A DNA stretch of 64,000 bases from Amphiscolops sp. MND2022. Its lineage: Eukaryota. The position numbers were made by a program, and so were the translations under genes. Shown here in pieces: positions 9,146 to 64,000 of the stretch. Numbering within the stretch: the stretch's first letter is position 1; each line of letters starts with the position of its first letter. The notes beneath the pieces are model-generated. The model made no database searches. It was not told where the DNA came from and saw nothing but the letters and a program-made list of their open reading frames with translations. Location of the stretch: contig OZ076409.1 in NCBI GenBank assembly GCA_964187785.1, positions 29,452,001 through 29,516,000 on the forward strand, written 5' to 3'.

Positions 9146-9857
9146 TGTAAAGTCAAGCAAGTAACGCACATACCAGAACTGGGACAATACTTAGGTTGCC
9201 TAGACAGGAGACCATAGTCCTATAACAAGCCTAAATACCAGTTTTTCGTCCCTAAAGGTCTCCTAGGGACTTTTCCAAAACACCGTGGAGACTCCTCTTA
9301 TCAGAGCTCCGTGGCGACGTGCCGGCACACTCAAAATCCGGACACGTCCCACAAGCATGTAAAAACGTTCCTAAAGACTTCCTGCGGTCCTTCATACTCC
9401 CGAGGTCCGAAAACAGGGTTCTAGCTGAAATGCATTCTATTTCAGAAAATAACGTCTAAATACTCCATTACAAGGATCTGGCAGATCCGACATCATCATA
9501 AATCTGTAAATCAATACTAATGACATCAGAATTATTCAAGATTGGCACTTCTGGCATGTTTCCATTGAATTCGCGATTCTCTTCATCTTCTTTGCTGTGG
9601 GATATCTGGATCTCAGAACGTTTTTGTATTAAAAACGCACTTTTCTGGGGAGATGACACAAATCCGAGCATTTTTCTTGTTCTTCCACATCGTGTCAGTG
9701 TCTTCTCTTCTTTTCTGGGTCGGGGTGGGGGGTCTCTTTTTTTGTGCTTCCTTTTTGATTTCAACGACCTGCCAGGTCGGCCATTTTGATTCGCACACTT
9801 TCTGGTCCTTGATCGAATTTTTCATCGAAAATTTGGTGCTGACTGGTGGACGTTACA
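9146..9857 (-). repeat. 3' LTR of element 1 (712 bp)
   Basis: TGTAAAGTC...GACGTTACA; differs from 27366-28077 by 7 substitutions and no indels on manual comparison. Confidence 0.96.
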
Positions 9858-9869
9858 TCCTCCCCGGGC
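9858..9869 (-). other. Polypurine tract of element 1
   Basis: Minus strand GCCCGGGGAGGA directly abuts TGTAACG of the 3' LTR; nearly the same motif abuts the LTR of element 2. Confidence 0.75.
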
Positions 9870-10374
9870 CACTGTTTGTCGTCCTCGGCAAACGGAGAAG
9901 GATGCATCACTACTTACAAATGGTTTTAGCAACGTGATTTTCAGTTTTTCTCTTAGATCTTACTACTTCAAAGTTTCGATTTAGCACTTTTCATTTTAGC
10001 ACTTTTTGATCATTCTGGGACAATAAAAATCAGTTTCTTTAAAAACTCTTACCATTCATTCCAAGCTAGTTTAAAAGTTCTTTTAAGGGTGGTTGCACTT
10101 TTGCGACACTTACCCAGAGAAGCGGAGAGGTTTTTACTAAAACTTTAATTGCACTTGTTTTGGCAGTTAGGCAGGCACCAAGCTGGGACCTACCCACCGG
10201 GTAGTTACACTAGCAAAATAATGTTAATACTTTGTTAACTAAAATAGCACTTATTGTTTTGATAACTGCTGAGGCGTAATACGTTTTTGGTTAGTTTGGT
10301 TTGATTAGCCAAGTTCAGTACTCGTTTCATTCATGGCCAGTGTCATCCATAGTAGTATCGTCATCTTGCAGCAC

Positions 10375-13300
10375 TTACTTTAATGATACGGCCAATACTT
10401 CCGATGACGTCAGGTCTTGCTGACTCAAGCTAGGTAGTTCGTTCAATTTTAATTCGATATCGGCTGCTAGTGTTCTCGTCAACGACGTGGGCGTGACTTC
10501 CAAAGCTTCTAGCGGCACTGTCTGATCATTGGAAGTAGCATTGGTGGTGTTGACTGTGGTTGGGTTAGCTGTTTCAGGGTCATGGATGGATACATCGGTG
10601 TTGGTTGGTGCTGCAGCTATTGCAATGCTGATTCGACTTGAGGTTGACACCACGGAAGTTGATGTATTTTCAGCAGTAGAAACCTCCTTGTGCCCTGCTG
10701 CCTGTCTCATTGAGGTCGAGCCCGCTGGGCTTAGTTCTGGCAGCTGGTCTGCGAGGTCTTGGCGTCCATATCGGAAAAATATTTCCTTGAAAGTCCCTAT
10801 TGCATTTGAATAAGTGTCATATACGGTATTTCCTTCGTCTCTCTGCTTGGTTATCAGACTCATGAAGATTTCCATGGCCATTCTTGGATTGATCGGCATC
10901 TCTTCATTCAGGAGCAAGGTCCTTCTATTGGGTTCTCTTGCGATTTTCGGAACTGTCGCCTTCAGAATTTGAAATCCTTGGTAGATCATTCTGTCCACCA
11001 TCGGCGGGTCTGCCCAATGCGTAGTGTCAGACAGGATTTTGGCTGTATCGGCTTGCGGTGTCACTCGAGTGTTGTACATTCGGGATACATCTTGTATTAC
11101 TCGATGCTGGAGTCTTTCTGGTGTGGAGCCTTTTCTTCGTCCACCCAGGCGTCGTTCCGCATTGGTTAGTACTCGGCGAATACCTGGCTCATCCCAGCTG
11201 GCAAAGCCTTGCAATGCTCCAGTGCTGGGTTCTACAGGAGCGTGCAACCATTCTACTGGATGAAGTTCTAGCGACATAGGAACAACGCACCGCGCTCTGG
11301 CTCGGATCAGGACACTGAAATTGTATTCGATCTGTTTCTTGTCTTTAATAATCGTGTATGCCATTGGTGGTCGGAAGTTGGCAACGTTGCGCACTAGCAT
11401 TTGAAAATCCGGTTGTCTGGCGTCGTCTTCAGGGTCCACGAAATGCAGAATAGATAATGTAGGTGCTTTTGCGGCAACTCTAAGCGGCTGTGTAGGGTAT
11501 CTCAGGGCCATCATTGAACCGAATATAGGCCAGACTATGGGTGCGATCATGGGGACTAGATCTTCAGTTTCTACCAACATGAGGCTGGCTATCTGCGACG
11601 GGAATAGGAAACCTGCAGGTTATTGCTATTGGGTTTTTGACTCAGCGAGTCGTCTAAAGTGCTCATCACACCAGAGACATTGACCCAGGCTGAGTAAACC
11701 CAAGCCAATAGTGTTTCGATAATCTCGGCGAGCTGGGCGCGCAACTTCAAAGCGCCTGCAGGGTCCAAGATGTTTAGAATGGCGGTAATCCAATTCCGCT
11801 GGTTCTTGGTGAATATGAGAAAACTGAGTAGACAGGAGTTGGCTTTAGCTAGGACCAATCTCTGCACCAGGTGCACTGGGCCCTTGTAGACGTCCCCTAG
11901 ACCAACGGCCATCAGGTAGGCCAGGATCTCAGCAATTGTGGCCCTCTGCATTGCTTCTACATACAGTCTAACTTGCTGCTCATCTAAGCTGCCTTCACGC
12001 TGCACCATCGTTGGTACCCAAAATGGCGAGATATTATACAAGAATATGGGGAAGGGAATTCCATGGCTTTCTGCTGTTTCATTCAAGGTCACGTGCAGCG
12101 TCTCATGCCAAGATTGGTAAGAATGCTCTGGGTTCATTCGGTTTTCTTGCGCTGTCTTCTGAGCTAATACTGTTAACAATACCAGGGTGGGGGAAACCAT
12201 GTTGGGCTTTGCGTCGATCGCTTGTCTCGCCACTGGAAAAACGGTCGCGTCGGTCCGAGTTTGTTTTATTCCTTCTGTCTTCTTGAAGAGAGCTAGCAGC
12301 TCTTTGTGGAATTTAGCGTTGTGCGTCCTCTCATCTAGCGTTGACTCATCTCCCCTTTCAAACCATCCGTTGTCAATCATGTTTGCCCGTTCCTTTTCAT
12401 TAGGCTCCTTGACTCGGCGTACCCCATTCTCATCAAAGGAGCGGTGCGCCATTTGCATGCCAAAGTCAAAGGCAGTAGCATCATCGGCCAACAACTGAAC
12501 GTTGCCCTCGTATCCGGTACAAGCCTGCAAGGCTTTCGAGATTTCCGCCAAAAATGCAGAATAAGAGTTCTCGCCCGGACGCCAGGTTGTGGCACTCACT
12601 CTCAGGTTCGGTGCTATTATGTAGAATGACAAATTCTGTGAGTAGGATGCTTCTGATACTAGATACAACAGTTGCTGGAGTGGTTTAGGCAAGTATACGT
12701 ATCCCGGGGGCGACACAAAGACTACCCCTACGACGGGCTTCATTCGCTGCACCCGCCTGATCACATTCCTCATTGCTTCGACGTACACAACTACCTCTCC
12801 TGTCATCACTTCTTCCGTCAGTCTACGGTTGCCTCCTTCGAAGTGTTTCAGCGTTCCTCGAAGAGCCAAGTGGTCAATCATATTGCTATATATCAGGATC
12901 GGAGGGAATGGAATTGTCTCTGCGTGGTTGACGGTGGGACCGAAGACCTTGCAGGTCACCTCGGCCATTTCCTCTAGCGATGTGCAGGGCAAGTTCATCA
13001 CGCGAACATCCATCAGGGTGTTGTTCATGTTCGCCGTTGCTTTCATCGTAGAGTCCATGAACAAAGCAATCCTTGTCTTTTGCAACACCTCTTTGCCCAT
13101 GGGGAGCAAGGTTGTTACGTCCCTCATGAAATCACGGCTTCTCGTCAGTTGGTCATCGTATCTTGCCGGTCGTTGTACGGCCAATTTTACTTTGGAGGGG
13201 AGTGGTCTCACCAATGATGACTTGTCTCTATGAAGATTCTCCCTTACTCTCTCGAACCAGGGAGGAATGCGGTCCAGGAGGAGTGTTGGCTTCTTTATGG

Positions 13301-14605
13301 GCCTCAAGTAATGCATTCCGATCGTTGCTCTTTCGAGGTTCTCCACATCCTCTGGGTCTCCTTTACTGGTAGCTGTTTCGAATTTCTGCACATCCAATCC
13401 TGAGTCTGGATTCTCTGATTTCGCTTCTCGCTGCAGACGCACCGCGTCTCTGGCAGCAATGTCAAGCTGTCGTGCCTCTATCTGCGATAGGCTCGCCTAG
13501 GCTCCGGCTGTTGCACTGGGGAAGGATTCGGGCTGGAGTTCGTTGCATCCGAATTGGCTAAGTCTCTGGCCCTTTTCTTTTGGACTAGCTGTTCGATTTT
13601 GCTTTGTTCCTTTCAATTCAATACGTCGCGGAGATCGATAGGGGCCTTGGCTGCTTGCCTTTCTGCTAGTTCTTACTTTTTCTGTTGTTCTTGGCGTTCT
13701 GGGTTGGCCTGAAAACCTATTAGGTGATGTGGGTCCTGCGACGTTGAAGGTAGCAAGGCATCGTAAGAGTCTTGAAATCCGATCATATCTGTCATGATGG
13801 GCACGTCGAGCGGGTTCCGCATCATTATGGTTCTCGGTCTTTGGCTTGTATCTTGGGTGGCATCTTCAGCGTTCTGCGCGCTCGTGTGCGCTTCTTCTAC
13901 CCCTTCCCCCCTGAAAGAAGAAGGGAGCATGAGTTTGTTGTTCCCTTCCAGGCGCCTGACACTGATTAGGGCGGATGATGGTGGGAGCGTCAATATCGGC
14001 GGAGGCATTGTTGGCAAAAGGCATGTGAATTGCTGTGTAGGCGGTGGTTGCGTTGATTGACAGTCGCGGGCGCTCTCGGGGGCAGTTATCGACGATATTG
14101 CAGGTGTTTGCGTCAGGTTCGTTTGAAGACGTCGCTGCTGCTCCATGGGAGGCCTATTAGGCTCGCCATATCTCAGGTGCGATCTGTGGTCATCAAAATG
14201 GTGGGTGGGATCGTGACCTTGCCACGCGCCATTGTGGAATTCCGTAGTTCTGCGGTAAGATCCAACTCCAATTGATATGGAGAGGGTAAAGTCCGGATGT
14301 ACTTCGAGAGATTGCATTTGAGCAATTAGTATGGCTATCCCGGTCACCAGTGATGGAGAAGGGGCCTCTTGTAGGGTCGATTGGACCAGACCAAGCTAGT
14401 CAATTCTGGTTTGAGATTCTTCGACAGGCAGCGAGGACACGGGAGTTTCTTGCGTGGCAATCGTCGGCGGTTGTGATTGGTCCATTCTGCTGGTGCTCGG
14501 TTGCGAGCTTGTTGTTGATGGAGCTGGCATGCGGGTTCTAGCCGATTGATCCATTAAAGAGATAGGTAGCACCTTGGATAAATGACTATGGTGGATATAC
14601 TGCAA
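10375..14605 (-). pseudogene. ORF3 of element 1 (SGNH-like domain protein in env position), broken into four pieces
   Basis: ORFs 14396-14605, 13673-14347, 11589-13442 and 10375-11580 are collinear with the 1257-aa ORF of element 2 (e.g. FMDST/AVDST, VSPPG/TSPPG, APNLRV/APNLRV, RYPTQPL/RYPTKPL). Confidence 0.85.
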
Positions 14606-14659
14606 ATATGATGATATACGACTGGCTGCGTCAAGTGCATGGGAATTGACAGGACTGAA

Positions 14660-14690
14660 CTAGAAAAAGGAAAACAACAGACGTCAATTT
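14660..14690 (-). promoter_or_regulatory. Candidate splice acceptor upstream of element 1 ORF3
   Basis: Minus strand TTGACGTCTGTTGTTTTCCTTTTTCTAG in the pol-ORF3 spacer (branch-like TTGAC, pyrimidine tract, AG). Confidence 0.5.
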
Positions 14691-14869
14691 GAGCTAAAAT
14701 ATTATTGCTGATGAATGCAATTGATTTGATAAACATTAAAAGACAATAAGATAAAACAGATTCGACAATTCACGTTAAAACCTAGTTCAGGGATTGACTC
14801 AAACAACACATATGCTAACAACAGGACGCGTGGCCTCCCTTATTGCCATTTTTTTTGTGCCACAGTGAT

Positions 14870-17800
14870 TCAATCAAATTTGGATTTTACATGGTTAAGG
14901 TGTGTCCTCACTAACGCAATTGATACATACACCCAATCATGGAGGACTATGTCGATATTGGAATCAATGAAATGATCTTTCAACATTGAAAACCAAGCTG
15001 GTAGCATGTTGATTGATCTTTCAGGGTCATAGATGGGAAGATGGATACGGGTGATTTGTCCTCGTGTGAGCTTCTGCACCAGGTCTATCAGGCACAGATG
15101 TTGCACATCATGTAAAATGGGGTGTTTACTAGAGGCTCTGGTGATTAGCAGGAACATTTCGTTATTCCACGGCGTTGCGGGTGATCTGGTGAGGTGAATA
15201 GCCTTTCCTACGGCTGGGCGTAGTCGGAAAATTTCTTCCTGGCCATATTCCCTGATGACGTAGCGCGCCATTGCTGAATGTGACAGAAGATCTGCCGGAC
15301 AGCATATTACTACGGTACCCCTGGCTTGCAAAATGTCAGTTTCTTCGTAATAAATCCATGATAGATAGTTCGGTTTGATCTTCGGATGCGTTGTCAATAG
15401 TTTTCCCGTGACTCTGCTTCGATTGTCTTGACTTGGTGTGAGATGATCCAGAATGGCCTTACGGTCTTGCCACACTGTTCTGCGTAAAAGTCTGTCTCCC
15501 AAGTTCGTGCAAGACCAATCGTGAACTACGGAGTGTGCTTCCAGCACGGTAACTGGGTTCTCGAATGTATACGTGTGTTTGTCTAACAGGCGTATTTTGG
15601 CTTGGCGACAAAAGGTGATAGCTAGTAGCTGTAACCAATGTTGACTAAGGAATTTCCCACGATAAATATCTGCTAGATGGAAGCATAAGGTGTCCTCAAA
15701 GTCTACAAGCGTACGCAAATTTTCCAAGCAAATCAGTAAAGTTCCTGGAGTCACTAGTGATGTTTCGTCCAAAGAGGTGACCAATAGCCACCAACCAGCC
15801 GTTGGGTGATACACATCTCCAGGAGGGGAGGTTACACCATAATGCTGCCATAGTCTTCGCGCGGTGATACAGCGGACCATTGCTATTCGGGTGTCACTTG
15901 GTTCTATTCTTCCAAACATCATCGATGGTGGGAGTGGGGGTATGATTGCGGTCAACGTGAATTCTAATCCACTCTTTTCGTGCCATGTCCATTCCTTAAA
16001 TCGGTAGGTTGGGCAGTCTGATGGAGATGTTTCTTGCATGGCTTTTAGTGTGGTTTCCAGGGGTGGGACCACGGCTGGTCCAATGCTCGAATAGGTCTTT
16101 TCCACGGTAATCACAACATGATGTACTTGTGAAACCTCTTGGTCTTTAGCTTGTATGTTTCGGATGTGTTGCATGTGGTCTTCCGTTGTTTCAGTAACAG
16201 CTGTGTCTGGGGCAGGAGCGTCTACTCCCCGGGCCAATCGCTTGTCCGGTGGTTTTCCACTAATTAGGTTGACGCAACTACAGTTACGGGAACCACATGT
16301 TCCGCAACGATATCTGGGAGTTCTATTGCGTCGCAGCAAATAGGGTGGTGCTCGTGAGGTTGTTGTTTGTTCCGCTTCTGGTTGCTCTGATGATAAACTT
16401 TCTGCAATGTTGGGTAGTGTCATTGCACGTTCCAAGGTTTGAGATTGTGCTCTGGTTCGCAATCTGCCTCTCGATCTGATGTACGGTCGGTGCGTGCTTG
16501 CTTGCAAGTGCTCTGCTTGATGAGTTGGCACTTCCCCTTCTACGATTTGGAGGTCTGCCTCTTGGCCTGCCTCTTCTACTCGCGGTTCTCCCCGATGATG
16601 GCGATGTTTCCATGCTGTGTCCGGGTTCTGGAATTTCTCTGTCAGTTCTTTCTTGGGGTTCGGGTTCCTCGATAGTTTGTAGTCCTGCCGAGCTACCAGC
16701 TCGAGAACTGAATAGAGGAAAATTGCTCAATGTGTCGGTTAAAGCTGGGTTCGAGAGCAATGGTGCTGATGTTCCTGATGGCGAGGGTATCAGACTTGGT
16801 GTTGGTTCTGGCCTGACTTCCTCTTGATCTGAATACAGTGGTTCCAAATCATCGATATCAGGGTAGATCATTGGTTGTTGTGGCTCTTCAATGGGTTGAC
16901 CCATTTGTTCTTGGTCGGATTCCGACTCAGAAGGGTATCCAAAATGACTGAATCGTCTTCGAGGGATTCCCCGTTCCAAAGCAGACTGAGTACGTGTTTG
17001 AATCGTGCTCGGGGGAACGGGCGCGGTCGGTTCCATCTCGAATGATGCCTCTGGCAGTTGTTCTGGACGAAATGAGTCACGTGATATGTCTGACGTTATT
17101 TCCTCGTTACTTTCCTCCACGTATGGGTCTGCGATGATGGCAACATTCTGGTCTAACCCAAAGGGTTGATATGCCGCCCAATCCCACGGCGCAGGCACAT
17201 GCTTCTTCAGGCGTTCGAAGTGAACCTTTTGTCCTGTATCCAAAACGTATAATCTTCCATCTTGTAACACATCTGTGACCTTGTGAGGTCCACGCCAGGC
17301 ACGAAGAAGTTTGCGGGTGCCACCTTTAGGAATTATGTGGCAGAAAACCCAAACAGCATCACCCACCGCGTGAGCTTTTGCTTTCAAATGCTTGTCGCAC
17401 TTCTGTTTTTGTCGTATTTGCGCCTGGTGTGTGTTTCGGCGAACAAGTTCGTGGATTTCTTGTTGTCGAGCAAGTAGGTGCTCCACAAATTCTTCTTTGG
17501 ACTCAAACTCTCGCGCTGCGAATTCTGGGTATATAAACGAGAGTGGAATGGATTTTCCTGCGCCATGTTGGAGCATATACGGGGAAAATCCGGTCGTTGC
17601 ATGTCTGGTTGAATTATAGGCACCCAAGACTCCGTCTATGTGTTCATCCCAGTCAAGCATTCTTCGAGATGTATAGACTCGGAGCAAGCTTAGTAATGTT
17701 CGGTTTTGACGTTCCACTAAACCATTGCCTCTCGGATGAGCTGGAGTAGACGTTATTTTGGTTACTTGCGAAGCTTTCATCAGTTCTTGAGCAATCTCAG

Positions 17801-20800
17801 CAGTAAAGTTGGTGGCATTGCATCCTGACAGGAGTACCGTGTCTTGCAAACCATTTGTTCAGGATAATCTTTGCAGTCGTCTGGGCGTCATATTCGTCGT
17901 GTGCACATGGGATTGCCTCTGCAAATTTAGTGAAATGGTCGATAATGACTAGCAATCCATTATTTCCTGACGTTGTTTTGCACAACTTCAAATGGTCGAA
18001 CTGCACCAGGTCATTAAAATTGCTGCTGTTGATACTTTGTAACGGATAACAGGGATTCCCAGCGGGATGTTTCGTCTGTTGGCATGTTAAGCAGTGCTTA
18101 ATATGATTGACAACATCACGCTTGATGCCTGGACAAGTGTGGCGCTCCTGGATTCTTGCCAACACTTTACCAACGCCTTGGTGTCCTGACTCGTCATGCG
18201 CTCTGTACAAGATTTCGTGTTGGTATAGCTGGGGCATGACGATCATACACGGTCGTATGTGCTTCGCGCGTTGATGCGGAATGTAGTTGACACACAAGAT
18301 ATCATTCTGGTTCAGGAACAGTAAGTCTTTCTTCTGGTGAAAGTACCGTTTGGCAAAGTCCTGCACATCTTCGGGGAACAACGTATCCTCTAATGGCTCG
18401 TTCTTCATGAGTTTCTTCAGCGCTAGCAGATGTACATCTCTGTTTTGAGCTAGATGAAGATCTTTCAACCCGCGCATTGTTGACTGATGCTCGTGAAGCT
18501 CAGTCCCGACTAGCCTGAGGACGTCAGCTTGTTCCTGACACTGCGTAGGCAATCTACGCAGTGCTGGGTCACGTTGGGTGGTAACCAGACGTGCCGCCGG
18601 AACTTTGGTTGTTACGCAAAGGATAAAATTCGGTCTGTCGTCTTCGGTCGAAGTCGGAGTTGTTTCCCATTGCACCTGTGGGTACCATGGTATGGAACTC
18701 AGGGACGGGTCTGAGGTTAGATCTTCTTTTGGTGGCTTTTTCAAAATGTACAGCACTGGAAGTTGTGCTCGAACTTCCTTTGGAAGCTCTGGATGGTTTG
18801 GGATAAATTTTCCATGTTTGTCGATATAGGGCACAGTGGGGAGTTCTTCGTAGTCTTTCTGGGGCATGAAGCTGAATCCCTTGCTCACTTCTTGTAGAGT
18901 TTCCACAATCTTCTCCCGATGTACGTAGTACAATCTTCTCCCGAATGATATTGGTCGAGGCGGGCAATCCAGCGTCCAATCATGGCTTGATCCATTGAAT
19001 ATGCCTTCAGCCACGAGAGAGCCTGGTTGTCCACGCGCAGCGTGAATTCCCGACCTGCAAGGTAGAAAAGAAATTTCTCGATGAAATAGAATACTGCATA
19101 CATTTCCAGCTTCGGGGCGCCATAATTCATTTGTGTTTTAGTCAGTGACTTGCTGCCATAAACAATAAGACGAAGAATGGTTTTCCCATTGTATTGTTGC
19201 TCTTGGTGCAGTATGCCGGCTATAGCAACTGCACTGGCACCCGTGTCGAGAACGAAACGTCCTTCTTCGTTAGGCGCTGCCAAAGCTGTGGCATCGACCA
19301 ATGCCTGCTTTACTGCATCGAACGCTTCTTGGTGTCTTTCTTTCCAGTAGAAGTGTTGGTTCTTCCTTAACAACTCCTGCATAGGTTGCACCTTAGCAGC
19401 ATGAAAAGGAATGAAATCTCGGTAGTAGTTCGCAAATCCAAGGAAGCTCTGTAATTCTTCTCTGTTTCTGGGGGGCATCCATTCCTGGATTTTGCTAACC
19501 GCAGCTGGGTCAGGCTTTATGCCTTCGGCCGAGACTACTCTTCCGAGGTACTTGGTTTCAGTGCGCATGAAGTCACATTTCTCTGCTCGCATCTTGAAAC
19601 CTGCCTCTCTGAGACACTCGAACACTTCTCTGATTCTTTCCAAGTGGTCTTCAATGGTTTCTGTCGCAATCACTTTGTCATCTATGTATGCCATGACAAC
19701 GCTTCCATGTCGTTGTTGGATCTTCTGTAGAGCTCTCGTGATCGATCGCTGAAAGGTGGCCGATGCGTTGCATAGTCCGAAGGGCAAGCGCCGCCATTCA
19801 AACAGGCCAAGTTCACACGCGAACGCAGTTTTTCTGCGATCACGCTTCTTCACTGGAATTTGCCAAAAGGCCCACGCCAAATCGATGCTCGTGAAGATCT
19901 TTGCATTCCCAATCCTCGAGAGGCTTTCATCGATTCTGGGTAGTGGAAATGCGTCCTTCACTGTTACATCATTTAGCGGGCGGAAGTCACAGCAAAAGCG
20001 AAGCTCGCCTGATTTCTTTTCCACCATGACTATGCCACTGGCCCACGGAGAGTAGGAGGGTTGTATCAGACCAAGGGCCAGCAAATTTTGCACTTCCTGA
20101 TTGGCTTTCGCCGCCTTATCAGGGGACATTCGCCTAGCTCCTTCTCGGTGTGGTATAGCCTCCGGCTCTAGCTCTATCTTGTGCTTTGCAATCTTACACC
20201 TACCTATGTCAGACTTATTTTTCATGAATAGGTCTTCATACTCATTTAAAATAGTTTCTAACTTGTTTCTTGCCTCTTCCCCCCATGAAGAAAGGACGGA
20301 AGAGAGGTCAGGGCCTGGGATTGCTTTTAGCAGCTGTGGATCTGTCCTTTTGCGCTTTTCATTATCTGATAAACCTGCCTCAGAGGTTCGGTCGAAGATA
20401 AAAAATTTTGGGCAAAGGAACTGAATTCTGAACTGGTGTCCATATCAAAGTTTCTATGTACTTGATTTACATATTCGGCAGAAAGCTTCGAAGCTTCACC
20501 TTCAGTTTGCATAAGAACAGAGTTCAATACAAAAGTGGTAAGCGCCGCTTTGCCAATAACAGTTTGTGCTTTGATTTTCACCCGTTCTTTATCAGTTTGG
20601 TTTCGGATGGCTAAAAATACTATACCTCCTTCTCCCACAGAAGTCAGTGTATCTTCTGAAACAAAGACTGAACTGGACTTTATGCTACATGACTGGACCG
20701 TTACATTACGAAACAGGAAAATGTCAGGTTGTTGCGTGATGATTTTCGCGCGCACAATCTTCCTTTCGAATGGACCTAGTATTACGTCTTCAGTAGAAAC

Positions 20801-49617: not shown

Positions 49618-49630
49618 TCACTCCCCGGGC
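49618..49630 (-). other. Polypurine tract of element 2
   Basis: Minus strand GCCCGGGGAGTGA directly before TGTAACG. Confidence 0.72.
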
Positions 49631-54957: not shown

Positions 54958-56640
54958 CTACTCCAGCCCTATAGTTAATATTGATACATATACGCGGCTA
55001 TGCAAAACCACGCGAATACCAGTACCCTCGAACATGTTCGTTAGAGTATGGTACAGATTGACCAACGAGAAAGCCGGTCTCTCGGGGTCCAGAATGGGTA
55101 AGTGGACCCGTGTGGATCCTTTGTCTATCAGGCGCTGTATCAAGTACGTCATGCAGCGCAAGTAGTCATCGGTCAGCAGCGGTGCGCGCTGGTTAGCACG
55201 GACTATTAACAGGTGAATACTTTGATTAGGGTTGGGGTTCACATCAGGCGGGATAGTGAGAATCTCGCCCACTTTAGGTCGTAAGGCAAATACATCTTCT
55301 ATGCCGCACTCCCGCAGCACATATCGCAAGGCGGCAGAGTTGGTCTTTAGGTCAGCAGGGCATGCTAACACTATGTCGCCCTCGGCCTGCAAAAAATCAG
55401 ATTCATCGTAAGAAACATGTTCGGCGGAATTCGGATACAGGGCTCCCGGGTAAACAATCTCTCGTCCGGGACCATTGTCGTAGGGCAGACACACGCGAGG
55501 CGTACGCCCTTGGACTGCAGCCAGGTCTTGCCACACTGAGCGGGGCATCGCTCGATTGTCGCTGCCGGCCTTTACCCACGCATCTAAAGTTCCCAGGGCG
55601 GCTTTGGGGAACAAGGGGATCTCGAAAGTGTGAGTCCACTCATCTAACAGTCGAATTCTGGGATAGGTGGCGAAACACGTGATAAATAATTCCAGCCACC
55701 ATGCAAACTTCACCTTGCCTCGGTACCAGTCTATGATGTGGAAGCAAAGTATTAAGTCCACAGTGGTGAGGGTCCTCAGACTCTCTAGACAGGATAACAG
55801 ATTCAACGGTTCCACCATCGCCTCCACTCGTGGAGCTGTTACCAGCAGCCACCAGTGAGGAGCCGGGCTGTATACCCCTCCTGGTTCCACCTGGACTCCA
55901 TACTTATCGCATAACAAGTCGGCAGTGATGCATCGGGCCATCTGCACCGGTTCCCTTTCAAAATTGAATGGTCCAAACGCAATATTGCTGGGCACAGGGG
56001 GCAACACCGTGGGCAGGGTAAACTCCAGGCCCTTTCCATCGCTAGTCCACTCCTTAAACCTAGGACAAGGGGCCTTCGCTACCCCGGGCAGTGACAACTT
56101 CTCCAGGATAGTGTCTACAGGGTGGTCTCCGGACCGCTCTACAGCTGAGTAGGTTTTCTCGGCCCGCACCGTGAGGCGGTACACCAAGTTTTCTCTCTCT
56201 TCCGGAGGAACTCCCCGGACTCCAATGGGAACCCTCCGGTTCTCATTCACAGCTAATAGGCAGACACAATCTCGCAGCCCGCAGGTTCCACACTTGTAGC
56301 GCGGCTGCCGTTTACTCCTTAGTTGATACATAAGAGCAGTTGCAGATGCCTCTGTTAGCGTCTCTGCAGTTCTGGGAGCTTCCGTTTCGGCCTGGATTGC
56401 AGTTTCGGTTTCGACATTTCTCGGTGTTTCTTTCTTCCTCGTCCTTGCTTTCGCTCGGATCAGCCGTTTCTTCTGTGCCTTGGGTGGTCTCCCCCTCCCC
56501 CTTTTGAAAGAAGGAGCGGTCCCCGCTCCTGGCGAAGTCTCGGGAACTTCAGGCAGATCGGGCTGAACGTTGCTGTCGCTGCTGGCAGATTTGAGAGGAA
56601 TCGGAGGGGCGGTCGGCCATATGGGATAGTTACTAAGGAA
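54958..56640 (-). CDS. Pol C-terminal extension of element 2: AT-hook, CxxC-x4-CxC, two TARG1-like macro domains
   Basis: The frame of ORF 54958-56331 is open upstream through KRGRGRPPK to a small deletion near 56640 (LLTNP..FLSNYPIW vs LLSNPALTDTLSNFPLF in element 1); C-terminal 150 aa follow the OARD1/TARG1 pattern. Confidence 0.8.
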   Translation of the reverse strand, partial: FLSNYPIWPTAPPIPLKSASSDSNVQPDLPEVPETSPGAGTAPSFKRGRGRPPKAQKKRLIRAKARTRKKETPRNVETETAIQAETEAPRTAETLTEASATALMYQLRSKRQPRYKCGTCGLRDCVCLLAVNENRRVPIGVRGVPPEERENLVYRLTVRAEKTYSAVERSGDHPVDTILEKLSLPGVAKAPCPRFKEWTSDGKGLEFTLPTVLPPVPSNIAFGPFNFEREPVQMARCITADLLCDKYGVQVEPGGVYSPAPHWWLLVTAPRVEAMVEPLNLLSCLESLRTLTTVDLILCFHIIDWYRGKVKFAWWLELFITCFATYPRIRLLDEWTHTFEIPLFPKAALGTLDAWVKAGSDNRAMPRSVWQDLAAVQGRTPRVCLPYDNGPGREIVYPGALYPNSAEHVSYDESDFLQAEGDIVLACPADLKTNSAALRYVLRECGIEDVFALRPKVGEILTIPPDVNPNPNQSIHLLIVRANQRAPLLTDDYLRCMTYLIQRLIDKGSTRVHLPILDPERPAFSLVNLYHTLTNMFEGTGIRVVLHSRVYVSILTIGLE

Positions 56641-57905
56641 ATTGGGTTCGTCAACAAGGATGCTGAGGTTCCTGGTAACGATGTTTCTTTTTCGGAGGAG
56701 GATATCTGTGGAGACGGTGAGCGCACGCGCTCATGGTCAGAGAACAGTTGAGGTAGTACACGGGCGGGGGATATCGACTGATCCAACGCAGCCGGAGGAG
56801 CCGCAGGCTCCACTAGATCCTCGTCAACTGGATTAGGAGGTATCGGCAACATGGCATCGGATAGTTCGTCATCTGTACCCGAAGTGGAATAGTCAAATTG
56901 CTGATAATGCGGGCGGGAGCCGCCTGCGCGAAGTTCCGTGCGTAGTCGAGTGTCCATCCAGTGACGTCGACGTGAGGGCAAAGATGCATCGGACGCTTCT
57001 GAAAGTAGTTGTTCAGGTTTATACGACGATAAAGACTTATCGTCATCAACTACGTCGACGGAACGTTCAGGTTCGGGGTCCATAAGTACCACCACCTCAC
57101 CACTGTCCGTGTGTGCAGTAGCAAGTTCAAGTGGGCCACTGTGGTGCGGTTTAAGACGCTCAAAATGAACCTTTTGACCTGTGTCTAGTACATAGACACG
57201 ACCGTCCTGAAAGACTTGTACAACCTTGTGCGGGCCTCGCCAAGCACGCATCAATTTCGGGGAACCCTTTTGCGGTACGTAGCGGCAAAAAACCCAGACG
57301 AGCTCGCCTACTTGGTAAGCTCGCGCTTGTATAGCACGGTCGTACTTTAACTTTTGACGCAATTGGGCTTGGTGCGTGTTACGCCGTACCAAGTCATGTA
57401 TTTCCTGCTGGCGAGCCAATACATGATCGACATACGCCTCATGCGACTCGAATGATTTGGCTGCAAATTCGGGATACAAAAATGTGAGAGGGATGGCCTT
57501 CTCTACACCACGGGTCAGCATGTAGGGTGAGAAGCCAGTGGTGGCGTGCCTCGTAGAGTTGTAGGCGCCCATGACCTCATCAAGACATTGGTCCCAGTCG
57601 CGCATACGGCGGGAGCAAAAAACTCGCAGTAGGGTTAATAATGTCCGGTTTTGACGCTCCACCAAGCCTTGGGTTCTCGGATGGCTAGCCGTAGAGGTTA
57701 CTTTGGTAACGTGGGCTGCTTTTAGGAATTCGTTGGATACCTCAGCAGTCAAATTTGGAGCATTGTCAGACTGCATTCGAGTGGGTGTGCCATGACGGGC
57801 GAACCACTTTTGCAGCAGCAACCGAGAGGTGGTCACAGCGTCGTAGTCGTGATGACTACAGGGAACTGCTTCCGCGAACTTGGAGAAATGGTCAATTATG
57901 ACCAA
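56460..57905 (-). CDS. pol: Integrase core and C-terminal region of element 2 (frameshifted from upstream pol near 57915)
   Basis: VIIDHFSKF, MQSDNA, HPRTQGLVERQN, WRGPHKV...VHFERLK. Confidence 0.93.
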   Translation of the reverse strand: MVIIDHFSKFAEAVPCSHHDYDAVTTSRLLLQKWFARHGTPTRMQSDNAPNLTAEVSNEFLKAAHVTKVTSTASHPRTQGLVERQNRTLLTLLRVFCSRRMRDWDQCLDEVMGAYNSTRHATTGFSPYMLTRGVEKAIPLTFLYPEFAAKSFESHEAYVDHVLARQQEIHDLVRRNTHQAQLRQKLKYDRAIQARAYQVGELVWVFCRYVPQKGSPKLMRAWRGPHKVVQVFQDGRVYVLDTGQKVHFERLKPHHSGPLELATAHTDSGEVVVLMDPEPERSVDVVDDDKSLSSYKPEQLLSEASDASLPSRRRHWMDTRLRTELRAGGSRPHYQQFDYSTSGTDDELSDAMLPIPPNPVDEDLVEPAAPPAALDQSISPARVLPQLFSDHERVRSPSPQISSSEKETSLPGTSASLLTNPISLVTIPYGRPPLRFLSNLPAATATFSPICLKFPRLRQERGPLLLSKGGGGDHPRHRRNG

Positions 57906-60900
57906 GATGCCAGTGTTATTACTGAAGGGCAGATCTTCAGGTGATCATATTGGACCAATTCGTTGAAGTACCCGCTCTGGATGTTCTTTAGGTGGAATCG
58001 GACGTCACCAGGCTTATCTCGAACCTGTTGACAGGTGAGGCATTGGCCAACGTAACGGCCCACGCTGCGTCGAATACCAGGCCATGTGTGACGTTCTTGA
58101 ATCCGAGCCACCACTTTGGAGATACCTTGATGTCCCATGGCGTCATGCGCGCGGAATAAAATCTCATGCTGGTACAGTTGAGGCATGACGATCATGCACG
58201 GGCGTTCGTGCAGGGGACGTTGATTGGGAGGGTATTGTACGCAAAGCACACCATTCTTGTTAATGAACAGGAGAGTTTTCTTCTGACGGTAGTAGTTGCG
58301 TGCGAACTCACGCACGTTCTCAGGAAACACGTCATGATCGATGGGTTCGTTTAGCACCAACTTTTTGAGTGCTAGCACATGAACATCACGGTTTTGGGCT
58401 AGGATCAAGTCTTTGATACCATGCACGGTGTGAGCATGTTCGTGAAGTTCAGTGTTGATGTCTTTAAGAGCCATAATTGAGTCGCGTACACCCGAGGGAG
58501 TACCTTGCAACGCAACAGGATTCGCCCCAGCAATAGCATAGACGGTACGTGAAGATACATTTACGGCATGCGTCGGTAATAGATAATCTTCGCGTGCTTC
58601 ATCAGTGACATCAATCCAGTCCTCAGGGTAGTCTGGATAGGCATCCTCGTGCGGTTGCAGAGCAAGGGAAGGCGGAGGCGGCAAGGGTGCTGCGAATGCT
58701 TTCGCTTGTCTGTCTCTCCTGCTCGCTCGTTTTGTGCGGCGAAGCACGCGTAGCAATTGGTTGGGAGCCTTAGGCTCCAAGTTCTGCAGGTGCGCAGGTA
58801 GTTCGGGATGATTCGGGATGACTCGACCCTGAAGGTCGAACCATGGGGCAACAGGCAGTTTATCAAATTCGTCAGCTGAAAGGAAATTCCAGCGTTCGCT
58901 CGCAGCTGGCTGCTGTGCAAGCTGTTTCTCTCGGCATCGGTACTCGTTGGTTCGTTTGCTCAAGCCATCGGCGTTTCGATGTTGAGTTCTTGGGCGGTGT
59001 TCCACGCGAAAGTGATACTTCTCCAGGGTCATAATCCATCGGCCGATTAGCGCTTGATCCGTGGAGTAGGTTTTCAACCAGGACAAGGCTTGGTTGTCCA
59101 CCCGCAGGGTGAATTTCCGGGGACATAAATAGCTGTGGTTTTTCACTATGAAATAGTAGGCGGCGAACATTTCAAGTTTGGGAGCTCCGTATTTAGCTTG
59201 TGTGGTAGTGAGCTTCTTGCTGCCGTAAACTATCGGCCTCAGGCGTCGTTCACCCGGAGGACCTTGCCACTGGTGCAGGATACCAGAAATGGCGACAGCA
59301 CTAGCGTCAGTGTCCAACACAAACTCTCCTTCGGAATCAGGCTGCGCGAGCGCAGTTGCCTCGATCAGGGCTTTTTTGATTTCATTGAATGCGGTTTGTT
59401 GCTCAGGACCACATGCGAAGGTGGCATTCAGTCCAGTGACGGCGTGCAGGGGTGCAACCAGCTTAGCGTGCCAAGGGATGAATTCGCGATAGTAATTGGC
59501 GAATCCAAGGAAGCTCTGCATCTCCGTCTTGTTACGGGGAATTTCCCAATCGCGCAACTTGACGACGGCTTTCGGGTCGGGCTTCACTCCTTCTGCGGAA
59601 ACCACTCGTCCCAAGTACTTGATCTCCGATTTCATGAAATCGCATTTGGCCACGCGCATTTTGAAACCGGCTTTACGGAGGCATTCAAAGACCTCACGTA
59701 GGCGTACCATATGGTCTTCCACAGTCTCTGTGGCAATCACGATATCATCAATGTAGGCCATGACCATGCTGCCCTCACGATTGACAATATTCCTTAGCGC
59801 ACGCGCTATTGATCGCTGAAACGTGGCAGATGCATTGCACATACCAAATGGCATTCGCCGCCACTCAAAAGGTCCTAGTTCACAAGCAAAAGCGGTTTTG
59901 TGGCGATCCGCCTTTCGCACAGGAATTTGCCAAAAGTCCCAAGCAAGGTCTATGCTGGTATAAATCTTCGCCTTGCCTAGCCGTGCCAGGCTTTCATCAA
60001 TACGGGGCAAGGGATAGGCATCCTTAATGGTTACCTCATTTAACGGGCGGAAGTCGCAGCAAAAGCGCAACTCCCCGTTTTTCTTTTTCACCATTACAAT
60101 GCCGCTCGCCCAAGGGGACAGCGAGGGCTGTATCATTCCCAGAGCTAAGAGGTTCCGCACCTCCTGATTGGCACGTTCGGCCTTCTCAGGGGACATCCGG
60201 CGAGCACCTTCGCGATGTGGTACAGCCCCTGGTTCCACCTCTACGGTGTGGTTAGCGATAGTGCACCGACCGATGTCAGCCTTGTGTTTCATGAATAGCT
60301 CATCGAATTCATCGAGGAGGTTACTGAGAGACTCGCAGGCGCTAGCGCCCCATAAATCCTTAACCGCCTGTAACTGAGATTCTGGCCCAGGAATCGGAGC
60401 CATTAGCTCTGGGTCCGTACGCTTGCGAATTTCGCGCTCCGATAGTCCTGCCTCGCTAGGGTCAGTTGAGGACAAAAACTCAAATTCTGAAGAAGAGGTT
60501 AACTCAGAAGCAGTGGACAGATTCACTTCACTATAAATTTTATGAACAAAATTTGCACGACTGTCGTCGGCGTCAGTTTTTGTGCGGGTTGTTGTGGGAG
60601 AGTCCAGACACTGAGGTACTGCTTGGTATACTACCGTTATGGGTACTACGGTGCCCAGTTGTACACCACACCGCATGCGTTGAGGGTTGCTGGTGAGATT
60701 TATCAGGCTCACAAAGAGTGTCCCTGTCTCACTGACAGTGGCCACGCTGTCCTCTAAAAAGACGACATTATGCAACGTAGTGTCAGACAAAGAGGCATTG
60801 AGCGCTACGCTTTGAAACATCAGCGGCTCTAGTGCATTGGTGACGAGCTTTGCTCTAGCCACCGCACGTTCGAAAGGTTGCAGAACCAAGTCACTATCCA

Positions 60901-62017
60901 AAACGACTGGGGTAGCTATCGAAGTGTCACCTACCTGTGCGTGAGCATGATGCCACACAGGCTTCACTGGTGCTCGCACCACAATCTTCATAGATGTTAG
61001 ATCCACTAACACCTGGTAGGAGCGGAGAAAGTTCCGACCAAGTAGGAAGTCTTCCACACCCATTGCGTCATCTACCACCACAAAGTTCGTTTCAAGTTCA
61101 TATCCTCCCAGCTGGAAATGGATATGTTCTGCGAGGCCGTAGGTCTTTATTGTCTTCCCGTTGGCTGCGTACAGGTCAACTTGGTAGGGTTTAAGGACCG
61201 TTCCAGTTCGAGCTGCCACTCTGTTAAAGGCGGAAAACGTCAGTATGGAGACGCCCGAGCCAGTGTCCACCAGTCCTCGCAGCGGGATAGGTGTTGCATG
61301 AGGCACCACGAAAGAGACCACGAGCGACGCACGCTCATCTATACGCGCTTCACCGGTGGGCTCCTGATGATTGATGTTATAGCATTTGAGCTCCTGAGGA
61401 CCCAGACAAATGCCAGGGGGAAATACATCCACCACCACACAGGCTTCGAACTTCACATCCACTCCATCCATTGAAGCACAGACTGGCACTGGGGAATATG
61501 TTGTCAGAGTCGTAGACTCTCCCGGAGCGTACCATTCTTTCGGTCGAGGCAACTCGTTTCGTTTGTAGAGGATAGACAGTTCGACCCATAGCTTCGCCAG
61601 GGTTACCGTCGGCCTACGCGTTTGCTCAGCTGCCAGCAACAGGTGAATCGAAATCAGCGTCCGTCCTTGCGGGTCGAACGTCGTGGGTTCCAAGCAGGTC
61701 TGAACTTGCTTAGCACCACAAGTGAATGTCATCGGAGTGTGGAACGCAGGCGGTTCCGCCGGATGTAGCATCAACACACGGTCATCTTCCAAAGGTACGG
61801 TGTGCGCGGCGATGCCAGCTGATTCGACCTCAGCCCATCGATTGTAGGCTAACTCGTCACTGGGCTTCGGCGCATGGGAGTGCTCACCACATTGCACTTC
61901 CGCCTGATCGAAAAGTCCACAGCTCGTGCATTGATAGATCCCCGGATGACCTTCAAGGATGCCATCGGTCGCGTCTTCCGTGGTGACCTTTACGCCCTCT
62001 GGTTCGGAGGCAGTCAT
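57896..62017 (-). CDS. pol: pol of element 2: pseudo-protease, protease, RT, RNase H, integrase N-terminal zinc domain
   Basis: 1373-aa ORF with LVDTGSGVSIL, DFLLGRNFL, YIDD, LDTDAS, NADGLSK, HDAMGH...CLTC. Confidence 0.96.
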   Translation of the reverse strand: MTASEPEGVKVTTEDATDGILEGHPGIYQCTSCGLFDQAEVQCGEHSHAPKPSDELAYNRWAEVESAGIAAHTVPLEDDRVLMLHPAEPPAFHTPMTFTCGAKQVQTCLEPTTFDPQGRTLISIHLLLAAEQTRRPTVTLAKLWVELSILYKRNELPRPKEWYAPGESTTLTTYSPVPVCASMDGVDVKFEACVVVDVFPPGICLGPQELKCYNINHQEPTGEARIDERASLVVSFVVPHATPIPLRGLVDTGSGVSILTFSAFNRVAARTGTVLKPYQVDLYAANGKTIKTYGLAEHIHFQLGGYELETNFVVVDDAMGVEDFLLGRNFLRSYQVLVDLTSMKIVVRAPVKPVWHHAHAQVGDTSIATPVVLDSDLVLQPFERAVARAKLVTNALEPLMFQSVALNASLSDTTLHNVVFLEDSVATVSETGTLFVSLINLTSNPQRMRCGVQLGTVVPITVVYQAVPQCLDSPTTTRTKTDADDSRANFVHKIYSEVNLSTASELTSSSEFEFLSSTDPSEAGLSEREIRKRTDPELMAPIPGPESQLQAVKDLWGASACESLSNLLDEFDELFMKHKADIGRCTIANHTVEVEPGAVPHREGARRMSPEKAERANQEVRNLLALGMIQPSLSPWASGIVMVKKKNGELRFCCDFRPLNEVTIKDAYPLPRIDESLARLGKAKIYTSIDLAWDFWQIPVRKADRHKTAFACELGPFEWRRMPFGMCNASATFQRSIARALRNIVNREGSMVMAYIDDIVIATETVEDHMVRLREVFECLRKAGFKMRVAKCDFMKSEIKYLGRVVSAEGVKPDPKAVVKLRDWEIPRNKTEMQSFLGFANYYREFIPWHAKLVAPLHAVTGLNATFACGPEQQTAFNEIKKALIEATALAQPDSEGEFVLDTDASAVAISGILHQWQGPPGERRLRPIVYGSKKLTTTQAKYGAPKLEMFAAYYFIVKNHSYLCPRKFTLRVDNQALSWLKTYSTDQALIGRWIMTLEKYHFRVEHRPRTQHRNADGLSKRTNEYRCREKQLAQQPAASERWNFLSADEFDKLPVAPWFDLQGRVIPNHPELPAHLQNLEPKAPNQLLRVLRRTKRASRRDRQAKAFAAPLPPPPSLALQPHEDAYPDYPEDWIDVTDEAREDYLLPTHAVNVSSRTVYAIAGANPVALQGTPSGVRDSIMALKDINTELHEHAHTVHGIKDLILAQNRDVHVLALKKLVLNEPIDHDVFPENVREFARNYYRQKKTLLFINKNGVLCVQYPPNQRPLHERPCMIVMPQLYQHEILFRAHDAMGHQGISKVVARIQERHTWPGIRRSVGRYVGQCLTCQQVRDKPGDVRFHLKNIQSGYFNELVQYDHLKICPSVITLASWS

Positions 62018-62033
62018 TGGTTTTCGGGCTTGG

Positions 62034-63908
62034 TCACGATTGGGGCACTCGCGAGCAAAATGTCCGTTTTGCCCACAGTGAAAACAAGCACCTACCGGCG
62101 CTCGGGCGGGAGCTAGGACAGCGAGAGCTGGGACATTTGGGGGGGGGCGCCGGAGGTGGCAAGACGCCCTGCGGCATGACCATCTTGTTCGGCGGCAGTG
62201 GTGCGAAAGGATGAGGTCTAGACCTCATGGCTAATCTGGGATCATAGGGTTGTTGAGGTTGGGTGGGTCTGGGACGATTTCGTTGCAGCTGACGCGTGGT
62301 AAATCGCAAGGACTCTACGGTAGGGGGTTCGGTAAGAAAAGTCTCCGAGGCGTATACTATGGCAAGTTCACGCCTCAACACTGGATCTCGCACACCTTCC
62401 ATGAAGCGCTGCAAGATTTCATAGCGTTTGGTAATGATACTTTCTTGCGGGAATCCTTGGCTCCTGAGACCCTCTAAAGCGTCTAAGTACTGCATCCAGT
62501 CCTCTTTTTCTTGTTGGACACGGCTTTGGAAGGTCTGCCGCACCTGCATACGATTTCCTCCCGCGCCAAATCGGCTAGATAGCAACTCGAACACCTTCTC
62601 GGGGGTGTCACGTTCAGACTCAGCCTTGTTGATGATGTAGTTGCGAGCCTCACCCTCGAGATGACCAATAATGCTCCAGGCCCGATCTTCGGCCGAGACT
62701 TTGGTTTGGACTCTTTTCAAGTATCGCTGCATCACTAAGATCCAGCCATCAATAGACCCGTCCTTAGAGCCTCGATACACGCTGGGTTTGGTTTGAGCCA
62801 GGTCACGTCCCGCAAGCAACGGTGCTAGTTCTTTGGACATCGCTTTGGAAATGGCGGCAGTGAACCTCAGTTGCTCGGGAGAGATGACCTCAGCCTCTCC
62901 TTCCTTGGGTGCCACTTCATCAGTACCGTCGTCACTGCCATGCGTGGCTCGTACTGAGAGGTTCGCTATGTCTTCTTTCTTGCGAGTGCTACTCGCACAA
63001 GGAGCGCCCGAGGGCATTCCGTCCTCGGCTGTCCAGTCGGCGGTCAGATACAGGGAGTCCGTTCCAGAAGCCATGGTAGGGGCCGTCGCATACGCAGCTC
63101 CATCAGTCTGGGACCCTAGTGTGGCCTTGGTACAGGATAAATCAACTTCGGTAGAAGTATCTAGATAGATAGGTGACATTGGGTCCACACCTTGGTCTCG
63201 GGTGGCACTTCGAACTACGGAGGAGGTTATTTGACTCATCGACGAGGAGTCGTGGGGCCCTCTCACCTGCACCCGTGCAGGTTTACGCTCCACATCAGCC
63301 ATGATGAGTACGGAATCCTTGGTTCGGGTTTCAGGCGTCGTCGACTTGGAGGTGCTAGGCTTCAATGCACTCGCCAGCTCGGGTTTCGTTGCCCGACCCA
63401 GGTGCGATGATTCCGGAATCTTAATTGAATCCGCGACTGGCACACCTTCAGTGGCACCAGATTGTCGTGGGAGGGACCTCTCGCGCCTCATGATGTTGAT
63501 AGCATTGAGCACAGTGTGCATTTGGTTACTCAAATCATTGATCTGGGTTTCCACACGAAGTTCACGGGCCATCAAAAGGTCATTCATCTCACCCATTCTG
63601 TGGCCTAGTGCATCTACGCGAGCACTCTGCGTATTCTGCGCGGTTCGCAGTTGATCACTGACCTGCAATCCTTCTCGCATCGTTGTCTGCAACGTTCTCA
63701 TATTTTCTGCGATGGCACGATGTTGGTCATTGCACCCAGCACGAGTTCTAGCCAGTTCAGCTAAGGCACGTTGGGTCTCAGCTTGGGCTTCCAATATTGC
63801 GGCTTTATACACCGAAGATCGTTGGGATGATGCCACTGAACCTGCCACGCTCCTCGTACGAGGCACCTCAAACTGACGTTCACCTACATTTATCATGGGT
63901 GGTCGCAC
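62034..63908 (-). CDS. gag: gag of element 2 (N-terminus may extend beyond the window; 1-nt shift in a C homopolymer near 62140)
   Basis: KPSVYRGSKDGSIDGWILVM...LEGEARNY...MQYLDALEGLRSQGFP; the knuckle CFHCGQNGHFAREC is read in the +1 frame after the C run and continues into the pol ORF. Confidence 0.88.
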   Translation of the reverse strand: MRPPMINVGERQFEVPRTRSVAGSVASSQRSSVYKAAILEAQAETQRALAELARTRAGCNDQHRAIAENMRTLQTTMREGLQVSDQLRTAQNTQSARVDALGHRMGEMNDLLMARELRVETQINDLSNQMHTVLNAINIMRRERSLPRQSGATEGVPVADSIKIPESSHLGRATKPELASALKPSTSKSTTPETRTKDSVLIMADVERKPARVQVRGPHDSSSMSQITSSVVRSATRDQGVDPMSPIYLDTSTEVDLSCTKATLGSQTDGAAYATAPTMASGTDSLYLTADWTAEDGMPSGAPCASSTRKKEDIANLSVRATHGSDDGTDEVAPKEGEAEVISPEQLRFTAAISKAMSKELAPLLAGRDLAQTKPSVYRGSKDGSIDGWILVMQRYLKRVQTKVSAEDRAWSIIGHLEGEARNYIINKAESERDTPEKVFELLSSRFGAGGNRMQVRQTFQSRVQQEKEDWMQYLDALEGLRSQGFPQESIITKRYEILQRFMEGVRDPVLRRELAIVYASETFLTEPPTVESLRFTTRQLQRNRPRPTQPQQPYDPRLAMRSRPHPFAPLPPNKMVMPQGVLPPPAPPPKCPSSRCPSSRPSAGRCLFSLWAKRTFCSRVPQS

Positions 63909-64000
63909 TCTCTTGTGTTTGCCATAGGCACAAACTCTAGTGTTACCTCGAGCGACTCCAGACCCCTGCGGTCTCGCACAACTCGTGTTCCCTGTGTAGG

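Follow-up and report, generated by a model that had tools for sequence, protein, structure and literature searches.

What sort of element is represented by two very large retrotransposons that lie close to each other in one genome and that appear to carry the same set of additional parts? The stretch of DNA that raises this question, here called the window, is 64,000 nt of Amphiscolops sp. MND2022 (GCA_964187785.1, contig OZ076409.1, 29,452,001-29,516,000), out of a host genome of 1.07 Gb, and positions throughout are in window numbering. Element A, a long terminal repeat (LTR) retrotransposon of 18,932 bp, is found at 9146-28077, while element B, another of 18,883 bp, begins at 48903 and extends 3,785 bases beyond the window end. 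Both are on the minus strand, as are all of their features described below other than the target-site duplications, which have no strand, and in both window copies the frames are broken. An earlier note on this DNA viewed A and B as a giant Gypsy lineage with a conserved ‘kit’ of three accessory parts, i.e., a double protease, tandem macro domains fused to the integrase, and an SGNH-like third open reading frame (ORF3). Likely, as considered here, these are young members of a distinct Ty3/Gypsy (Metaviridae-type) clade possessing the anatomy that is set out in what follows. That clade, as judged against papers rather than against the repeat databases Repbase, Dfam, and GyDB, is probably undescribed.

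The LTRs are as the earlier note had measured them, i.e., 712 and 715 bp. The 3' LTR of element A (9146-9857) is identical to its 5' LTR (27366-28077) at 705 of 712 positions, and that of element B (48903-49617) is identical at 711 of 715 to a 5' LTR which lies outside of the window, at window-equivalent 67071-67785. Ends of the TGTAACG..CGTTACA type are present as well, with one terminal substitution in each of A's two LTRs. Beyond these ends the LTRs had been described as lacking similarity. The ends are indeed shared, but the interiors are not wholly unrelated, with a global score of -259 versus -446 ± 26 for 30 shuffles. The sequence GCCCGGGGAG, as also had been claimed, is shared by the two, and occurs at three positions, namely directly inside of the 3' LTR of A (9860), directly inside of that of B (49621), and additionally at 16225. 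The tracts of which it is part, GGCCCGGGGAGGA in A (9858-9870, adjoining the 3' LTR) and GAAGCCCGGGGAGTGA in B (49618-49633), would by position be the plus-strand primer tracts (PPTs). Each of the two LTRs has at least 40 matches in the host genome, of 99-100% identity (B) or 96-100% identity (A), with many paired approximately 18 kb apart, and the elements' LTRs range in length from 712 to 744 bp.

Between the LTRs of element B, and in coding order, is first of all a gag with a capsid-like region (62034-64000, continuing beyond the window edge), its CX2CX4HX4C knuckle being at 62039-62089 in the next frame. This is followed by a retropepsin-like lobe which lacks DTG (61370-61744), an active-type retropepsin (DTGSG; 60974-61336; Pfam), reverse transcriptase (RT; YIDD) plus RNase H (58970-60334; Pfam), and an integrase (57100-58183) with H2C2, core, and WRGPH, the latter a motif that we take to be of GPY/F type; there is a frame break near 57900 in the window copy. 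Element A has an equivalent gag (22131-24292; two frame pieces, a weak PNMA match by Pfam, and 58% identity to the B capsid region) and pol (16323-21490; several frame pieces, with an active protease, DTGS, then RT, RNase H, and integrase, also by Pfam). The claim that A and B share a domain order despite diverged proteins thus stands, with identities of 69% for RT-RNase H, 52% for integrase, 42% for the protease region, 35% for the post-integrase region, and 28% for the ORF3 core.

That gag, pol, and the post-integrase region constitute one frame is seen in other copies. Stop-free stretches of 2,733, 2,382, and 1,981 amino acids (aa) occur in B copies, single gag-pol frames of 2,999-3,258 aa occur in four copies of related families, and in a third family, C, the macro region lies within an open frame of at least 3,200 aa in 61 of 96 scored copies. 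The order within the single frame is capsid, knuckle, dead protease lobe, protease, RT, RNase H, integrase, and then two macro domains. All four of the single frames examined have both the YIDD of RT and the WRGPH of integrase, and the knuckle, seen in B, is found in three of the four, with none found in the fourth.

This is in many ways a standard Ty3/Gypsy element. The order protease-RT-RNase H-integrase is found by Pfam on the window frames and by motif order in the four single frames, and the RT is of Ty3 type without a retroviral tether, its best solved match being Ty3 RT (E 1e-68, residues 20-449), which outranks the RTs of caulimoviruses and retroviruses. Likenesses include, in addition, the YIDD motif, the CX2CX4HX4C knuckle, the GPY/F-type motif, TG..CA ends, priming by tRNA, and a PPT. 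What differs is a target-site duplication (TSD) of 3 bp, a primer-binding site (PBS) found 15-17 nt from the LTR, lengths of 15-19 kb, the dead protease lobe, and the macro pair. Gypsy elements of giant size and with additional coding regions also include Ogre of plants and Burro of a planarian, much of the size of which is a matter of long LTRs or spacers; neither is known to carry pseudo-protease, macro pair, or SGNH modules.

The 3-bp TSD and the offset PBS are features beyond those which the earlier note had read from the sequence. Element A is flanked by TAG (9143-9145 on the left, 28078-28080 on the right), and B by TTT (48900-48902, with the second copy outside of the window). Both outer flanks were compared for 44 insertions, with 20 coming from family A, 14 from B, and five each from C and from D, a family related to A. 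Left out were 15 of 26 single LTRs, plus L002 and L005, as one flank was internal element sequence. A 3-bp duplication is found in 39 insertions, a 4-bp one in a single insertion, 5-7 bp in none, and four insertions have no duplication, while random re-pairing of flanks (10,000 times) yields 2.2 3-bp TSDs on average and never more than 11. The duplicated bases are 77% A+T and lack a fixed sequence. The sole 4-bp case is a solo LTR of family A (L008). The 4-6 bp typical of Ty3/Gypsy elements, a trait upon which classification is not based, thus is not what these elements display.

TSD length mirrors integration-complex geometry, and a length of 3 bp has lately been treated as a mark of Troyka alone. 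Annotation pipelines by default are tuned to TSDs of 4-6 bp, and with such defaults would under-call these abundant elements. No TG..CA Gypsy making 3-bp TSDs was found in the literature searched. A Gypsy-type clade with TG..CA ends and a 3-bp TSD, if that is what this is, would represent a second, independent origin of this trait, and with that a natural comparison for the determinants of stagger. In the consulted portion of PMC12440569, Troyka alone is named with 3 bp, the remaining LTR retrotransposons being assigned TSDs of 4-6 bp.

Might the 3-bp TSD instead have come by descent, with these elements being relatives of Troyka and the Kuafuorterviruses, or Gypsy-Troyka chimeras? What is shared, going by the consulted parts of the sources, is the 3-bp TSD along with a gag-pol which mostly is a single frame. 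Troyka as portrayed in that same portion of PMC12440569, however, has CG..CG ends, LTRs of 100-400 bp, a CX2CX8-10HX4C knuckle, no GPY/F motif, and internal parts of 1.6-7.7 kb, while its RT motif, per an excerpt of PMC11673190, is IADD, VADD, or LADD. Here, by contrast, ends are TGT..ACA, LTRs are 712-744 bp, the RT motif is YIDD, the knuckle is CX2CX4HX4C, and a GPY/F-type motif is present. As ends, LTR length, knuckle, GPY/F, and RT motif all differ, the elements are not Troyka, membership having been rejected upon ends, RT motif, knuckle spacing, and GPY/F motif alike, and a descent of the TSD from that group is very improbable.

The second of the added features, the offset PBS, was identified by predicting tRNA 3' ends from the sequence following the 5' LTR and then seeking these in the host genome by pattern. 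There are 256 matches for tRNA-Arg(TCG) and 667 for tRNA-Lys(TTT) versus 0 for reversed controls, with PBS and host tRNA 3' end agreeing at 18 of 18 bases. In element A the PBS, for tRNA-Lys(TTT), is at 27332-27349, 16 nt inside of the 5' LTR end, and matches at 17 of 18 bases in the window copy and at 18 of 18 in another copy (L075). Counting from the terminal CA of the LTR, the PBS starts after 15 nt in B, 16 nt in A and D, and 17 nt in C. The usual distance is 0-3 nt, and an offset of 15-17 nt is unusual. Given the standard model of reverse transcription, the spacer would remain as an extension at the U5 end of the cDNA, and since integrated copies terminate exactly at CA, that extension presumably must be removed. 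The offset, that is, predicts an unusual end-processing, one which can be tested in vitro. The primer tRNAs themselves, Arg(TCG) and Lys(TTT), are present as large tandem arrays (C9 from 57.54 Mb and C7 from 5.22 Mb), with the tRNA-Arg array containing TCA-anticodon variants.

A ‘double protease’, as had been proposed, could mean two enzymes. What is supported is that the upstream lobe is retropepsin-like; it lacks the DTG, so there is no second enzyme. The lobe profile consists of 12 lobes, eight from relatives outside of Amphiscolops (six of these independent) and four from Amphiscolops families. Against a profile of 66 outgroup proteases it gives an hhalign probability of 96 (E 2e-9, score 54.6 versus a shuffle maximum of 16.1), while of 46 windows taken from the equivalent upstream position in outgroup proteins, just one matches the protease profile at E<0.01. 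With Amphiscolops sequences alone the comparison of lobe with active protease is not significant (15.8 versus a shuffle maximum of 16.5). D[TS]G is absent from all 12 aligned lobes. As read from sequence, the upstream lobe is a clade-wide pseudo-protease.

Following the integrase, in the same frame, is a region that in element A spans 14870-16726 (35% identity to B over 551 aa), with macro-like domains at approximately 15570-15930 and 14900-15340. In element B the equivalent domains are macro 1 (55636-55995), the less well supported of the two, and macro 2 (54988-55428), which is TARG1/OARD1-like. A model of this region, built using 50 sequences, has a mean predicted local distance difference test (pLDDT) score of 75. 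Within that model, macro 2 (residues 306-450) matches TARG1/OARD1 with a Foldseek E of 3e-10 (Z 16.4, root-mean-square deviation 2.3, 137 residues aligned). Macro 1 (residues 117-236) has the same strand-helix order as macro 2, matches it by hhalign (32.7 versus a shuffle maximum of 19.8), and over residues 119-233 resembles the macro-like end of leucine aminopeptidase (Z 6.6). Pfam has no match on either accessory region, i.e., post-integrase or ORF3, the ESM Atlas supplies only leads below 0.9, a macro cluster at 0.87 among them, and a profile search of solved structures with the post-integrase region reaches TARG1 at an E of 0.06 at best. The claim of tandem macro domains thus holds clearly for macro 2, whereas for macro 1 the backing is topology together with similarity to macro 2, but not the relatives' profile; as modelled, a tandem pair is likely.

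The glycine-rich GCGLD loop has a catalytic role in TARG1. In macro 2 that loop is aligned to DPERP, which makes hydrolysis doubtful. This substitution bears on the main rival to a targeting role, namely that macro pair and ORF3 serve in counter-defence, as decoys or erasers acting against host ADP-ribosylation or silencing, rather than as targeting and membrane modules. Animal viruses commonly possess macro folds of TARG1 type, and two relatives from elsewhere, P0305 and P0308, have matches to Pfam Macro and retain the loop, as GCAWD. The DPERP of Amphiscolops, though, argues against ADP-ribose hydrolysis, and fusion to the integrase end is suggestive of action with the integration complex. 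Counter-defence thus is possible but on balance unlikely. Preferred here is a targeting role, with the macro pair occupying the chromodomain position of chromoviruses, from which tethering is proposed by analogy. Capture of a macro domain by an LTR element is known also from epsilon-like endogenous retroviruses of fish, which possess macro-domain ORFs (excerpt of PMC4977317, citing Basta 2009); there it is an additional ORF, here it is two domains in frame with a Gypsy integrase.

ORF3 is a separate open frame, of 1,427-1,533 aa in three families, with an open frame of 1432 aa in an A-related copy. Within the window it is found at 10375-14395 in element A, as three frame pieces, with the SGNH-like part at approximately 12460-13110 and 28-38% identity to B ORF3. 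In element B it is found at 50391-54662, with approximately 1420 codons and one in-frame stop near 50890. Upstream of ORF3 in both A and B is a pyrimidine-rich AG tract that resembles a splice acceptor. The SGNH/GDSL-fold domain of B ORF3 (52557-53132) retains Ser and Asn positions and, by motif alignment, has Arg at the position of the catalytic His. Of rows from VIA-align with residues 107-298, the 50 listed are nearly all esterases, lipases, or acetyltransferases of SGNH/GDSL fold (best match Z 9.7, root-mean-square deviation 4.2, 179 aligned). In blocks aligned by eye, DS is found in 16 of 16 rows, N..DH in 22 of 22, and Arg at the His position in 25 of 25 printed rows. Beyond the SGNH part are a helical domain and one hydrophobic stretch. 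The earlier description of ORF3 as SGNH-like is thus supported as to fold by VIA-align, on a model with a mean pLDDT of 50, but not by Foldseek; nor did the ESM Atlas give an SGNH match, or a profile search of solved structures anything useful, for ORF3.

To what extent is ORF3 part of an obligatory kit? It is not, as four of five sampled copies of family D, a young family, are without it. These copies are 14.8-15.4 kb, have LTRs that are 99.4-100% identical, and are left with only approximately 1.4 kb from pol to the 3' LTR, a stretch in which no ORF3 remnant was found in the one copy compared. The two family D copies in which pol was read retain the dead lobe and both macro domains, with RT-RNase H 95% identical to that of A. 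For recent spread, therefore, ORF3 is either not required or provided in trans. Its loss from a thriving lineage also fits with a shared, trans-acting factor, which favors counter-defence. Closest to ORF3 in other elements is the GDSL ORF of bdelloid Vesta, which in the consulted portion of PMC5408684 is approximately 1.3 kb with intact catalytic residues, in elements with LTRs of 159-551 bp. Vesta too is Gypsy-type, with an SGNH/GDSL domain in an ORF3 which is present in some families and missing from others, but ORF3 here is of 1,427-1,533 aa with Arg at the His position, and that same portion describes neither macro pair nor dead protease for Vesta. As a single genome here holds young sister families of both kinds, ORF3-bearing and ORF3-less, the role of GDSL-type ORF3s becomes directly testable.

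To judge by their residues, all three modules, i.e., protease lobe, macro pair, and SGNH domain, look catalytically dead. Are they then simply baggage, captured and neutrally carried? The absence of ORF3 from most sampled family D copies along with the eroded catalytic motifs would be consistent with that. Between A and B, however, synonymous sites are saturated (proportion of synonymous differences 0.77-0.93), while amino-acid identities are 45% for macro 1, 43% for macro 2, 34% for the SGNH part, and 25% for the helical part, as calculated over residues from local alignments, which favor identity. Saturation in combination with conserved proteins fits with purifying selection. ORF3 furthermore is open at full length in three families, and the dead protease and C-terminal macro domain recur in distant relatives outside of this genome. 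Neutral carriage is thus largely refuted and, as a reading, very unlikely, and that the modules are under selection, as the earlier note proposed, is upheld.

Those relatives were placed by means of an RT-RNase H tree (FastTree) of 138 sequences, consisting of A, B, and those 136 of 170 candidate proteins with at least 380 aligned residues. A and B fall in a clade of 20 that has support of 1.0 and a stem of 0.44, alongside a single close protein and 17 unnamed ones from ENA, JGI, and Logan, which represent 13 independent clusters. Pfam Macro is found at the C-terminus of three of 16 relatives scanned. A macro profile from six relatives has matches, among the 170, in 11 proteins that belong to the clade's clusters, in part a consequence of how it was built, and in a single protein from outside, and finds two copies of the domain in P0296. 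That protein as well as P0305 and P0308 consist of RT plus RNase H, then a long spacer and, at the C-terminus, the macro domain; no integrase was found in them by Pfam or blastp, and perhaps these are integrase-less, dependent elements. From metagenomes, 10 of 80 loci have their best RT match within the clade. One of them, L092, of 21.6 kb, has frames of 1,667, 2,197, and 1,808 aa, a dead lobe (E 6e-11), a macro-like tail (28.3 versus a shuffle maximum of 18.3), and an ORF3 with, by eye, GDSF and GGHND motifs; neither an LTR pair nor a PBS-like match was found in it.

Various points weigh against a distinct clade with this anatomy. The tree consists of unnamed proteins only, without named Gypsy references, and the clade might thus be identical to one that already has a name. 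Macro 1 is not significant against the relatives' macro profile (12.7 versus a shuffle maximum of 18.8). Foldseek, given the low-confidence ORF3 model, finds nothing at E<=0.001. The ORF3 of L092 compares only marginally with that of Amphiscolops (helical part 23.5 versus a shuffle maximum of 22.4), and not significantly in its SGNH part. Lastly, the 3-bp TSD and offset PBS are seen in the Amphiscolops genome only, the former since no LTR pair was found in L092.

The clade could already be catalogued, as a Repbase or Dfam family or as an RT-defined clade such as MolGy or PolGy, with only the modules and 3-bp TSD being new. Families this abundant and young might well have been collected, and sixteen MolGy clades have been defined by phylogeny in a paper which, in the passages that a search of it returned, has no word on TSD, PBS, or macro domains. 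Standing against this are the naming of Troyka alone with 3 bp, as noted above, the ‘hypothetical protein’ label, with no other name, of all 10 of the closest relatives looked up, and the fact that the combination was not found in papers, with that search not aimed at PBS offset or tandem proteases and with supplements of PMC12440569, PMC6238403, and PMC8556966 as places that may hold matches. Prior cataloguing, in short, is improbable, if by no means negligibly so. Each module has its own precedent, i.e., GDSL ORF3 in Vesta, macro ORFs in fish endogenous retroviruses, and 3-bp TSD in Troyka, but the papers searched offer none for the combination.

How might such a distinct Gypsy clade function? 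It presumably would go through the usual Ty3/Gypsy cycle of particle, reverse transcription, and integration, with clade-specific changes. The primer, as sequence shows, is host tRNA-Lys or tRNA-Arg, with the PBS set 15-17 nt in from the LTR end. This would give rise to a cDNA with a 15-17-bp extension past the terminal CA at its U5 end, to be trimmed during integration, and the integrase would cut target DNA with a 3-bp stagger. The three extra modules would be pseudo-enzymes acting through binding, with the dead lobe most likely tuning protease activation and the macro pair most likely tethering integrase to chromatin or a host partner. ORF3, from a spliced message, would supply an env-like function, at the membrane or in transmission, which spread within a single genome does not require. 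Such roles are tentative, each somewhat under an even chance. Less firm still is all of this taken jointly, which would be a separate and widespread LTR branch on the level of Troyka or Odin, with an independently acquired 3-bp stagger, trimming of 15-17 nt at one cDNA end, pseudo-enzyme modules for protease control and targeting, and an optional env substitute. That branch would have been missed by standard LTR finders, the default TSD length and primer offset of which are broken by these elements.

Additional features of the coding regions of element B include a conserved, beta-rich region between protease and RT (60500-60950), which by eye we take to resemble the dUTPase-like remnant of some Gypsy elements; when solved structures were searched by profile, dUTPase was absent among the matches listed for it. 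RNase H and integrase are separated by a linker (58200-58970) of approximately 255 aa, with linkers of 160-284 aa in seven clade proteins versus a median of 97 in 93 outgroup proteins. Upstream of macro 1, at 56000-56340, cysteines form a conserved cluster (CGTCG..C.C), accompanied by a small beta-alpha domain. Between the two elements, 28078-48902 consists of unrelated repeats. At 45040-48903 is a tandem duplication, of 1.6 kb and 97% identity, of a non-LTR retrotransposon fragment (RT, zf-RVT), with the edge of its second copy serving as the insertion point of element B. A relic of 217 bp at 41162-41377 has 73% identity to the RNase H region of B. Inverted-repeat pairs and short tandem arrays, of a type like that of miniature inverted-repeat transposable elements, are found at 29729-30140, 34122-34999, and 41494-47144.

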